A stretch of DNA of 64,000 nt from Octopus vulgaris (taxonomy: Eukaryota): positions 96,286,001-96,350,000 of the forward strand of contig OX597820.1 in assembly GCA_951406725.2 (NCBI GenBank), given 5' to 3'. Below, one piece after another: positions 35,601 to 38,464 of this stretch. The position numbers and the translations under genes were made by a program. The notes under the pieces are model-generated. The model did not search any database. It saw only the letters and a list, made by a program, of their open reading frames with translations, and was not told the origin of the DNA. The first letter of the stretch is position 1. Each line of letters starts with the position of its first letter.

Positions 35601-35915
35601 AGACACTTATCTCAACGAAATTATGAAACAGTTTACTTCATATATATATATATATATATATATATATATATATATATATATATATATATATATATATATA
35701 TATATATATTGTGAAATAGAAAGATGAATAATCTTGTTGCAGATTAATCAAAAGTTTAACCGATACCTTGGTAGCAAAAATCACAGCAGAAGACAGCACG
35801 GTTGGAGGTACAACCATATGGTGTTGCAACCGTGCGTTGGTGCGGATAATTGAATTTTAATATTATTAGTGAATTGAAGAAATGGAGTTGAACGAAGATT
35901 GAACAGAAATCGTTT

Positions 35916-36008
35916 TATTGCATTCTACACGTGTTTCGAAAGGCACAATTTACCATATTCTGATTGAATAAGGAGACCATATTGTGTCTTTCTCTTCAGG
36001 AAGAAATA
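35916..36008 (-). ncRNA. Type I hammerhead ribozyme (family P1, left arm)
   Basis: Same fold as 6827-6919. Confidence 0.7.
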
Positions 36009-36085
36009 GGAATTCCTTAGGAGCCTCCTCGTTCGATTTGTTTTGCTGCGCCTCTGTTCTGTTTTTGTTCTGCCAACGGAATTCC

Positions 36086-36178
36086 TATTTCTTCCTGAAG
36101 AGAAAGACACAATATGGTCTCCTTATTCAATCGGAATTTGGTAAATTGTGGCTTTCGAAACACGTGTAGAATGCAATA
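36086..36178 (+). ncRNA. Type I hammerhead ribozyme (family P1, right arm)
   Basis: CUGAAGA at 36095, GAAA-CACGUG-UA at 36157-36168. Confidence 0.7.
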
Positions 36179-38464
36179 AAAGGATTTCTGTTCAATCGTC
36201 GTTCAACTCCATTTCTTCAATTCATTAATAATATTAAAATTCAATTATCCGCACCAACGCACGGTTGCAACACCATATGGTTGTACCTCCAACCGTGCTT
36301 TCTTCTGCTGTGATTTTTGCTACCAAGGTATCGGTTAAACTTTTGATTAATCTGCAACAAGATTATTCATCTTTCTATTTCACCAAACATATATATATTT
36401 ATATATATATATATATATATATATATATATATATATATATATATATATATATATATATGAAGTAAACTGTTTCATAATTTATATATATATATATATATAT
36501 ATATATATATATATATATATATATATATATATATATATATATATATATATATATATATATATATATATATATATATATTATATATTGATTTCATAGATCT
36601 GAAGAAAGTCATGAATGAAAACTAGAAACTTATTTATATGTATGATTCTATAAAAACTGAAGGCAATCACTGAAAAACATGTATATATTGAATATATTAC
36701 CAAGAAAGTTGCTTATGTGGTTTATTAGACCTAGGTTTTTATAAAATTAGTGTCTTTATATATATATTTTTTTTTTTTACCAAAAATAGGTTGACTTGCC
36801 AAACTGAATTTAAGAACCTGGTTCAAAATAGTCTGAAATGATAAAAAAAGTAAAATGTGCGTGTCTCAAAATTTAATAAGAAACAACGAAAAAATAATTT
36901 TGAAGATATATGAAACTATACACGAATTGGGTTGGTTAGATTTAATCTAAGAAGTCAGACTGATTGTTATAAATCCACAGGTAGTTATCGATTTTGCTCC
37001 TCATGTTTGTATTCCCTCCTATATTCGATAGATTCTTAGGTTCATTAGTAATAAGATTATGTTTTCAACTATTCCAGAAATATACGTGCATTCCAATTCC
37101 TATCGCTTCAAGTTGCACACCACAAAGCTTCGATACTACAGGCTATACACTACAGCGATCTGACAGAGGCGCGCTAGTGTGGATTCTCGATAAAGATGTG
37201 TACCATGTAATCATGTAGTTCCGGTTTCAATCAGTGGGCAGAGGCATGGGCAAGTGTCTCAGTTGGCCAACCCCTTATGAACAGAAGTTTATGAGCTGGA
37301 AATATGTGAGAGCTCGTCTATCTGTTTATACATACATATATACATACATTCATACATATATATATATATATATTATTATTATTATTATTATTATTATTAT
37401 TATTATTATTATTATTATTATTATTATTATTATTATTATTACTAAAAAGTCAATAAAGGTAAACGGAAAAGAAAAATTTTTAAATGCTTGGTTCATTTCA
37501 TTTGTATTAAAATTGGAAAAGTAAAAGATTAAAAGATATATCTTTTAAGGTCGAGCATTATTTAGAAATTTCCATGTAATTTTATAGGATTTATAAGTTT
37601 CCAAATAAATTTACTAAATCTTGTGCTATTACGTTTATTAATATTTCGAAATAGGGCTATAATATCTGTAATATCTATAATAGCTATATCATTGTTAAAT
37701 AGACTATGAATATAATTAACATTAAATGAACCTCAAATATCAATATATGTTTTTAATACAACCCCATTTTTACATAAATGTTGTATAAAATATTATATCC
37801 CACATTTATGACTATTGGTACTTTTAACCTATTTCAGTATGTAAATATGAAAATTTAAACTACACGTACGTATTGATATCTCTTTTATCCATATAACTCA
37901 TAGATATATTACTAAAATGAAACACAAGCTATTTTTCATTTTTAAAATATCGAATGATATTAGTACACATACATATGAAATAAAGGAAGATCACTAGTTA
38001 CTAAAATTTTGACCTAGGGAATTTATCCTGTAACACTGTTTTCAATTTCTTTAGCATTTCGCAACGTTAATATAGTTTATATACACCTTATATTTAAATA
38101 CAAAATATTTTTTCTTCGAACACCGGAAATTATGTCTTAACTAATTCAATTCCTAAATAACACCAGTGTTATTCACCAATCTTTATTTACATTTCCCAAT
38201 ATGATTTTTGCATATTACACCCCTCACGATAAGCTACATCCGTCTTTCTACCACCTCTCTCACATAATCATTTATAAATATATATATTATATATAAATAT
38301 AAATATTATATATATATATATATATGTGTGTGTGTGTATGTATGTATGTGTTTGTATGTATGTATGTATGTATGTATGTATGTATGTATGTATCTATCTA
38401 TCTATCTATCTATCTATCTATCTATCTATCTATCTATCTATCTATCTATCTATGTACGTATGTA

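Follow-up and report, generated by a model that had tools for sequence, protein, structure and literature searches.

An inverted host-flank copy across a palindromic Penelope-like insertion in Octopus vulgaris, most likely the product of a template switch

The inverted flank copy and its surroundings

How does a short piece of host DNA come to lie, inverted, on the far side of a transposable element from its source? The question is raised by a locus within a 64,000-nucleotide stretch of the Octopus vulgaris genome (hereafter the window), which is AT-rich (26-40% GC), carries many microsatellites and transposon remnants and has no N in its 64,000 bases. Here positions 35618-35640, beside a palindromic element, are the exact reverse complement of 36458-36480, with no mismatches, as the original prediction had it; the rest of the 64 kb contains no match to this 23-mer at fewer than six mismatches. 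The terminal bases of the 23-mer can also be read as TA runs, leaving an unambiguous core of 21 nt (35619-35639 and 36459-36479), and a 21-nt core match anywhere in the window, between pairs no more than 1 kb apart, is expected by chance at about 1e-4. The inverted flank copy is real in the assembly.

The two copies have different neighbours. The left one, on the forward strand and the source of the inverted copy, runs leftward into unique sequence (35299-35640 has no second good match within the window), while the right one is enclosed by TA runs on both sides, stranded between them as had been claimed. Among 19 short islands flanked by TA runs, 36459-36479 is alone in having a match elsewhere over its whole length, matches within 60 nt being excluded. 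Membership of the 23-mer in the element family was a check proposed at the outset, and the 23-mer stands beside neither of the other two family loci in the window (6568-6981 and 58439-58709); we rejected it as part of the element on that ground. This comparison, based on three loci, supports the 23-mer being host DNA and the left copy being the native one.

Between flank and element lies a left TA tract (35640-35709), perfect over its 70 nt. Flank and tract together (35618-35709) form a 92-nt inverted match with 36389-36480, at 91 of 92 positions, the sole mismatch being an in-phase change at 36399; the left and right TA tracts of the palindrome are both 70 nt long. On the right side the forward strand begins the tract at 36389-36400, where the interruption at 36399 produces ATTT at 36397-36400. 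There follows a reverse-strand segment of 80 nt, 36401-36480, which is an inverted copy of 35618-35697 (58 nt of TA and 22 nt of flank) and itself ends in ATTT, and then an outer right TA tract of 99 nt (36480-36578) leading to unique right flank. The whole hairpin spans 863 bp, in agreement with the approximately 860 bp first proposed, and a DNA fold pairs 35618 with 36480 at -431 kcal/mol.

A family of head-to-head, hammerhead-bearing ends

Within its tracts the palindrome occupies 35710-36388. The left arm (35710-36017, reverse strand) is the shorter of two apparently 5′-truncated Penelope-like ends, its 3′ end facing outward if the hammerhead strand gives the polarity. The right arm (36078-36388, forward strand) makes up the longer copy together with a 60-nt spacer (36018-36077, forward strand), which is extra 5′ sequence in the same orientation as the right arm and aligns collinearly with the copy near 6.7 kb, upstream of that copy's hammerhead. 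The predicted arms of 306 bp are there, 35711-36016 against 36078-36383, identical at 299 of 306 positions (7 mismatches); the outer tip of the right arm is 4 nt longer than the left tip and of different sequence, and the central junction has a 1-nt overlap. Over 173 nt the left arm is 99.4% identical to the left arm of the locus at 6 kb, and over 207 nt it is 90.3% identical to the copy at 58 kb. The latter covers four of the arm differences, and at two of these four (36182 and 36300) the right arm has the letter of the 58 kb copy and the left arm that of the 6 kb copy, a sorting pattern whose chance probability is 0.006 to 0.05, depending on the model.

Each arm also carries a hammerhead motif, on opposite strands as proposed: 36092-36171 on the forward strand (type I minimal, predicted cleavage after 36168) and 36002-35923 on the reverse strand (type I minimal, with long helix II and short palindromic helix III). 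We scanned both strands of the 64 kb with a hammerhead descriptor and obtained three matches, all within the Penelope-like family, in which helix I has 3 bp, helix II is long and interrupted, and helix III is short and palindromic. Four variable hammerhead sites fall at positions unpaired in the right-arm fold. Rfam at gathering scores gave no matches in the 64 kb, fold stability of the hammerhead regions was not above that of shuffles (z-scores 0.01, -0.74 and -0.18), and RNAalifold on the three copies recovered helix II and not helices I and III, with 0 of 29 pairs compensatory. As a separate observation, 36141-36327 on the hammerhead strand has the look of a possible retained intron (a donor-like site at 36141, 145 nt without AG, a pyrimidine tract and AG at 36326-36327), a pattern reached in shuffles at 0.002 for a region that was picked post hoc.

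The family has three loci in the window, and at all three inverted 5′-truncated copies are joined head to head, with all six arm ends adjoining TA tracts, the (TA)n target. At 6568-6981 the arms overlap by only about 20 nt, a twin-priming pattern, and there is one hammerhead (6833-6912); at 58439-58709 the arms measure 208 and 60 nt, are identical at 59 of 60 positions and have no spacer. Both loci have TA on each side and no flank duplication, so that the suggested search of other family copies for inverted flank duplications came back with none at two loci in the window. The family has two recurrent 3′ ends, about 150 nt apart, distal in four arms and internal in two. The two are the right arms at 6953-6981 and 58690-58709, whose common internal end stops some 150 nt short of the distal one; this suggests a second reverse transcriptase (RT) start site, further off than the usual tail. 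Both arms at 58439-58709 end close to the predicted site of hammerhead cleavage, about 7 nt beyond it on the 3′ side, as though ribozyme-cleaved RNA had been their template.

Paired minimal hammerheads 100-700 bp apart on opposite strands have been described as truncated Penelope-like elements (PMC4209133), in which inverted 5′-truncated copies, tails and TA targeting are known (PMC8557442, PMC3846280). Our family resembles EN+ Penelope-like elements with inverted pseudo-LTRs in this pair of opposed hammerheads at 100-700 bp and in the short helix I, long helix II and small palindromic helix III (PMC4209133, PMC8557442, PMC3846280), and also in its head-to-head 5′-truncated copies, alternative 3′ ends and TA targets. 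Judged by these sequence features, the element is a head-to-head pair of 5′-truncated Penelope-like ends, which is a known arrangement. There are differences: helix II is much longer here than the 7-8 bp described, and the 3′ ends lie about 150 nt apart, in contrast to the optional tail of 30-40 nt that two RT start sites produce in EN+ elements. The autonomous partner of those elements has a single ORF for a telomerase-like RT and a GIY-YIG endonuclease, whereas we found no Penelope ORF in the window. Pfam gave no RT or GIY-YIG in 14 frames (picked from 73 long frames plus that of the arm), where its only hits were a piece of Tc1-type transposase, a piece of PIF1 helicase and a weak DUF match; it returned nothing for the 50-aa open frame of the arm, and a protein search with that frame yielded 16 candidates, none at E<=1. 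With neither an RT nor an endonuclease gene found, the assignment to Penelope is one made on non-coding features; the copies may simply be too truncated to retain these genes.

Two other identities were considered. We rejected a non-LTR retrozyme, which consists of tandem direct repeats with a type I hammerhead in each (10.64898/2026.07.22.740005), because the copies here are inverted rather than tandem, and a MITE with true terminal repeats because arm lengths and centres differ at all three loci. The window also holds four more long palindromes, of other families (24153-24401, 28121-28396, 61090-61267 and 11164-11472), with arm identities of 76-93% and no canonical hammerhead found; that at 24153-24401 lies between TA tracts and has unequal arms. 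At 4585-5793 a 492-bp unit is repeated in tandem (about 2.5 copies, 99.4-100% identical) between two TA runs, again with no canonical hammerhead found, and 44610-46804 contains broken PIF1-like helicase frames, which we take to be probably a Helitron remnant.

Probable separate priming of the arms and a proposed switch of template

The original prediction was that snap-back synthesis had run past the element into target DNA. Part of this stands, in that the flank was copied inverted, for which a template switch or a fold-back offers the best explanation; the part that does not is a single snap-back that made the right arm and then ran on, against which spacer polarity and the differences between arms and between tips all speak. 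A left-primed fold-back leaves a loop collinear with the left arm, and the single snap-back fits poorly because the spacer is collinear with the right arm; nor are the arms identical, as that route would leave them, since they differ at 7 of 306 positions and at their tips. The duplication had also been called inverted rather than direct, on which the locus gives no verdict because a direct duplication inside (TA)n is invisible. From the sequence, the arms were probably primed separately. Twin priming, a pattern known from L1 (PMC11702581), fits the 6 kb locus because its arms overlap by only about 20 nt and snap-back cannot make such arms. Also in favour of separate priming, a Poseidon protein cuts and extends both strands in vitro (PMC11167929). 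The 58 kb locus resembles a fold-back, so the family may use both routes.

We propose that a twin-primed palindrome was formed and that an 80-nt template switch then added 36401-36480, a two-step reading to which we give a probability of about 0.55. In the first step, a Penelope-like element would have entered the TA tract by two separate priming events, one on each cut strand and each using a slightly different template copy, with the left tract as the presumed primer site of the left arm; the two cDNAs would then have joined at their truncated 5′ ends to give the head-to-head palindrome. In the second, a polymerase that had copied the right arm and advanced 12 nt or more into the right TA tract would have switched to the left side, leaving at 36389-36400 and being held in register by the 306-bp arms. 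With the left tract as its new template it would have copied in reverse the remaining 58 nt of TA and 22 nt of flank, before returning to the right tract at the ATTT common to the tract and the end of the copy, as in a 3-2-1-4 event; the outer tract at 36480-36578 would be the rest of the original target. The geometry, the spacer polarity, the arm differences, the equal tracts and the ATTT repeat can be read directly from the locus, and from them we infer the order of these events and the enzymes at work.

Several features are consistent with the switch. With 36401-36480 dropped and the reverse complement of 35618-35697 put in its place, the window is recovered letter for letter, starting from an ancestral allele deduced from the same sequence. 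Copying would have begun outside the element, in the right TA tract, because the arm tips are not homogenised and the arms are identical at only 299 of 306 positions. Equal 70-nt tracts are what in-register pairing from the arm ends predicts; among 70 other tracts, one has exactly this length and two come within 1 nt of it, and 1.9% of tract pairs are equal. The insert is bounded by a 4-nt direct repeat, ATTT (36397-36400 and 36477-36480). Of 149 points at which copying could have ended, the one used is the earliest to share 4 nt with the interrupted tract, and a point sharing 3 nt with pure TA had already been passed. The background of the word ATTT is 1.3%, but a 4-nt match to somewhere in the right tract is not rare, occurring at 10 of 149 stop points in this flank and 942 of 6854 in other flanks (7-14%); the length and ATTT arguments are both post hoc, and both lean on position 36399. 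When truncated single strands were folded, the right TA was not paired with the left TA, each tract being self-folded or open, so that the in-register step needs the left tract to be held extended. Inter-strand and intra-strand versions of the switch yield an identical product, and variants common to the arms and other copies could reflect later gene conversion. The case is a single event, found at neither of the two other family loci.

Such an event has relatives in other systems. Events of the 3-2-1-4 type, with its mirror, make up 31% of high-confidence human-chimp template switches (PMC5453318), and our locus matches the four-point scheme, with points 3 (35618), 2 (35697), 1 (36400) and 4 (36401) and a new inverted repeat; unlike the events described there, the jump spans about 700 bp and was apparently guided by transposon arms, and the ancestral allele is an inferred one. 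Snap-back end joining (PMC5728401) likewise uses inverted primer repeats, limited synthesis and a return by short new microhomology, and its insert joins a longer inverted repeat; its primer repeats, however, are of a few nt within about 30 bp of the break, against about 700 bp here. In L1, inverted target duplications were seen in 3 plus 1 insertions (0.3% and 0.1%; PMC10191854; PMC11702581 Fig. S9C) and ascribed to extra DNA synthesis in the closing step (PMC10191854; PMC11702581). These too are short inverted target duplications at a retrotransposon insertion, but in L1 it is the free target end that folds back on itself, upstream of the insert, whereas in our case source and copy are on opposite sides of the element, whose own palindrome the copy lengthens. 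In the published accounts of Penelope-like elements that were covered, chiefly open main texts, we found no inverted host-flank copy across a palindrome. The flank copy is most likely a 3-2-1-4 template switch or a product of snap-back end joining, probably a one-off slip of a known kind. The architecture of the element and the class of template switch are both already known, and the locus is a new instance of known processes.

Other routes to the same sequence, and timing

Could the whole hairpin have come from one act of synthesis after all? A left-primed cDNA that folded back, copied itself into the right arm and went on past the TA to take in 23 nt of flank would explain, in one step, both the equal tract lengths and the unbroken hairpin of 863 bp. 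Self-priming has been proposed for Penelope palindromes (PMC3846280), and the 58 kb locus, with no spacer and arms identical at 59 of 60 positions, is fold-back-like. Inverted-repeat spacers can flip later (PMC5453318), and such a flip is exactly what this route would need, together with a 4-nt change of tip and either conversion or a shift of two sites to the state of the 58 kb copy (0.006 to 0.05), all while a 35-unit TA tract held its length; the centre, moreover, offers only 1 nt of pairing. Its mirror version, with the right arm primary and the flank segment native to the right, needs the copy to stop exactly at the TA boundary and still requires identical arms. We hold the single snap-back to be quite unlikely and put it no lower because a later spacer flip with conversion could rescue it. 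To the same degree improbable, in our view, is that the left end existed in two copies (sister ends, or a flank-carrying read-through transcript), each of which primed one arm, and that the arms joined head to head, after which a break 22 nt into the copy was healed to the right TA tract. This would account for both arms following the same flank and 70 nt of TA and yet differing from each other; fold-backs of sister ends with two inverted cDNAs are described for L1 (PMC11702581), and read-through of Penelope into its flanks has been proposed (PMC3846280). But it requires an extra break and rescue, or loss of the parent's 5′ part, leaves the ATTT repeat unexplained and, for a read-through copy, predicts the tip and variants of the left arm, which the right arm does not show.

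A technical origin deserves the same scrutiny, as the insert repeats the left junction at 100% identity and with an equal tract length, and inverted structures of Penelope are known to cause difficulties in assembly (PMC8557442). Library amplification could have produced a fold-back chimera, or gap filling or polishing could have placed left-junction reads on the right; either would give this appearance. A second perfect copy lies 4 kb away, where the 430 nt of 41297-41726 recur, inverted and 100% identical, between the arms of a 36-bp inverted repeat (40122-40157 and 40628-40663); the inner right junction shows a 3-nt overlap, followed by AT-rich filler. With a pair of such perfect local inverted copies inside 4 kb, a chimera from library or assembly stays in play. 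That locus had been put forward as a parallel capture. The parallel extends to both being local inverted templated copies, but not to capture by the same element, which we rejected because there is no common sequence and no hammerhead; its 36-bp repeat occurs nowhere else in the window, and it reads as a multi-step templated insertion. The copied 41297-41726 is a transposase remnant that we presume to be piggyBac-like, with no Pfam match. Against an artefact at our locus, the clear differences between the arms and between the tips show that the palindrome itself is no fold-back read, and an assembler would need to have made two wrong joins, one of them with a 4-nt overlap, in a sequence free of N; we regard it as a rather slim prospect. 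Slimmer still is a fold-back without the element: a broken or stalled TA tract would have folded back, copied flanking DNA and been rejoined, and the element would have inserted later into the TA between the two copies. TA tracts are self-complementary and do fold on themselves, snap-back end joining uses TA/AT repeats (PMC5728401), and the family targets TA tracts at all three loci. Yet none of 59 tracts has an inverted flank match across it at a score of at least 10 (null, 17 of 3422 pairs), so the single case would have to coincide with an element insertion, and neither equal 70-nt halves nor a second ATTT is predicted. This absence favours the arms as the guide, from one event; when 3481 tract pairs were ranked, the top 15 included a single complex adjacent match, that of 35618 and 36480. 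Two further tracts are recorded in their own right: at 54062-54152 an 11-nt inverted match crosses an element-free TA tract at a score of 8, the 99th percentile of the null and not above it, and at 48221-48261 about 12 nt of flank is duplicated directly and stranded between two TA runs, a direct-repeat counterpart.

Returning to the template switch, its timing relative to the insertion may be read in two ways. Microsatellites change length fast, and the equal tract lengths suggest that the flank copy is young. The insertion can be just as young, provided that the arms took their differences from separate templates, and both timings therefore stand: the switch may have been the closing step of the insertion, or a later error of replication or repair. 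A specific form of the former is that, after twin priming, the new second strand turned back onto the opposite arm, which was still unpaired, and used target DNA as its template while the insertion was being closed; we consider this unlikely.

How the inverted structures of Penelope form, and how their insertions are closed, is an open question (PMC8557442, PMC11167929). Our locus argues for separate priming of the arms, after which a finished palindrome can guide the copying of host DNA. If the copy was made in the closing step, inverted flank copies across the element would be expected at a measurable share of palindromic Penelope insertions, and such copies would be a readable trace of second-strand completion. 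Should they prove common, they would offer a genome-scale test of that step, and a caution for repeat annotation, in which such flank could be mistaken for a terminal inverted repeat.
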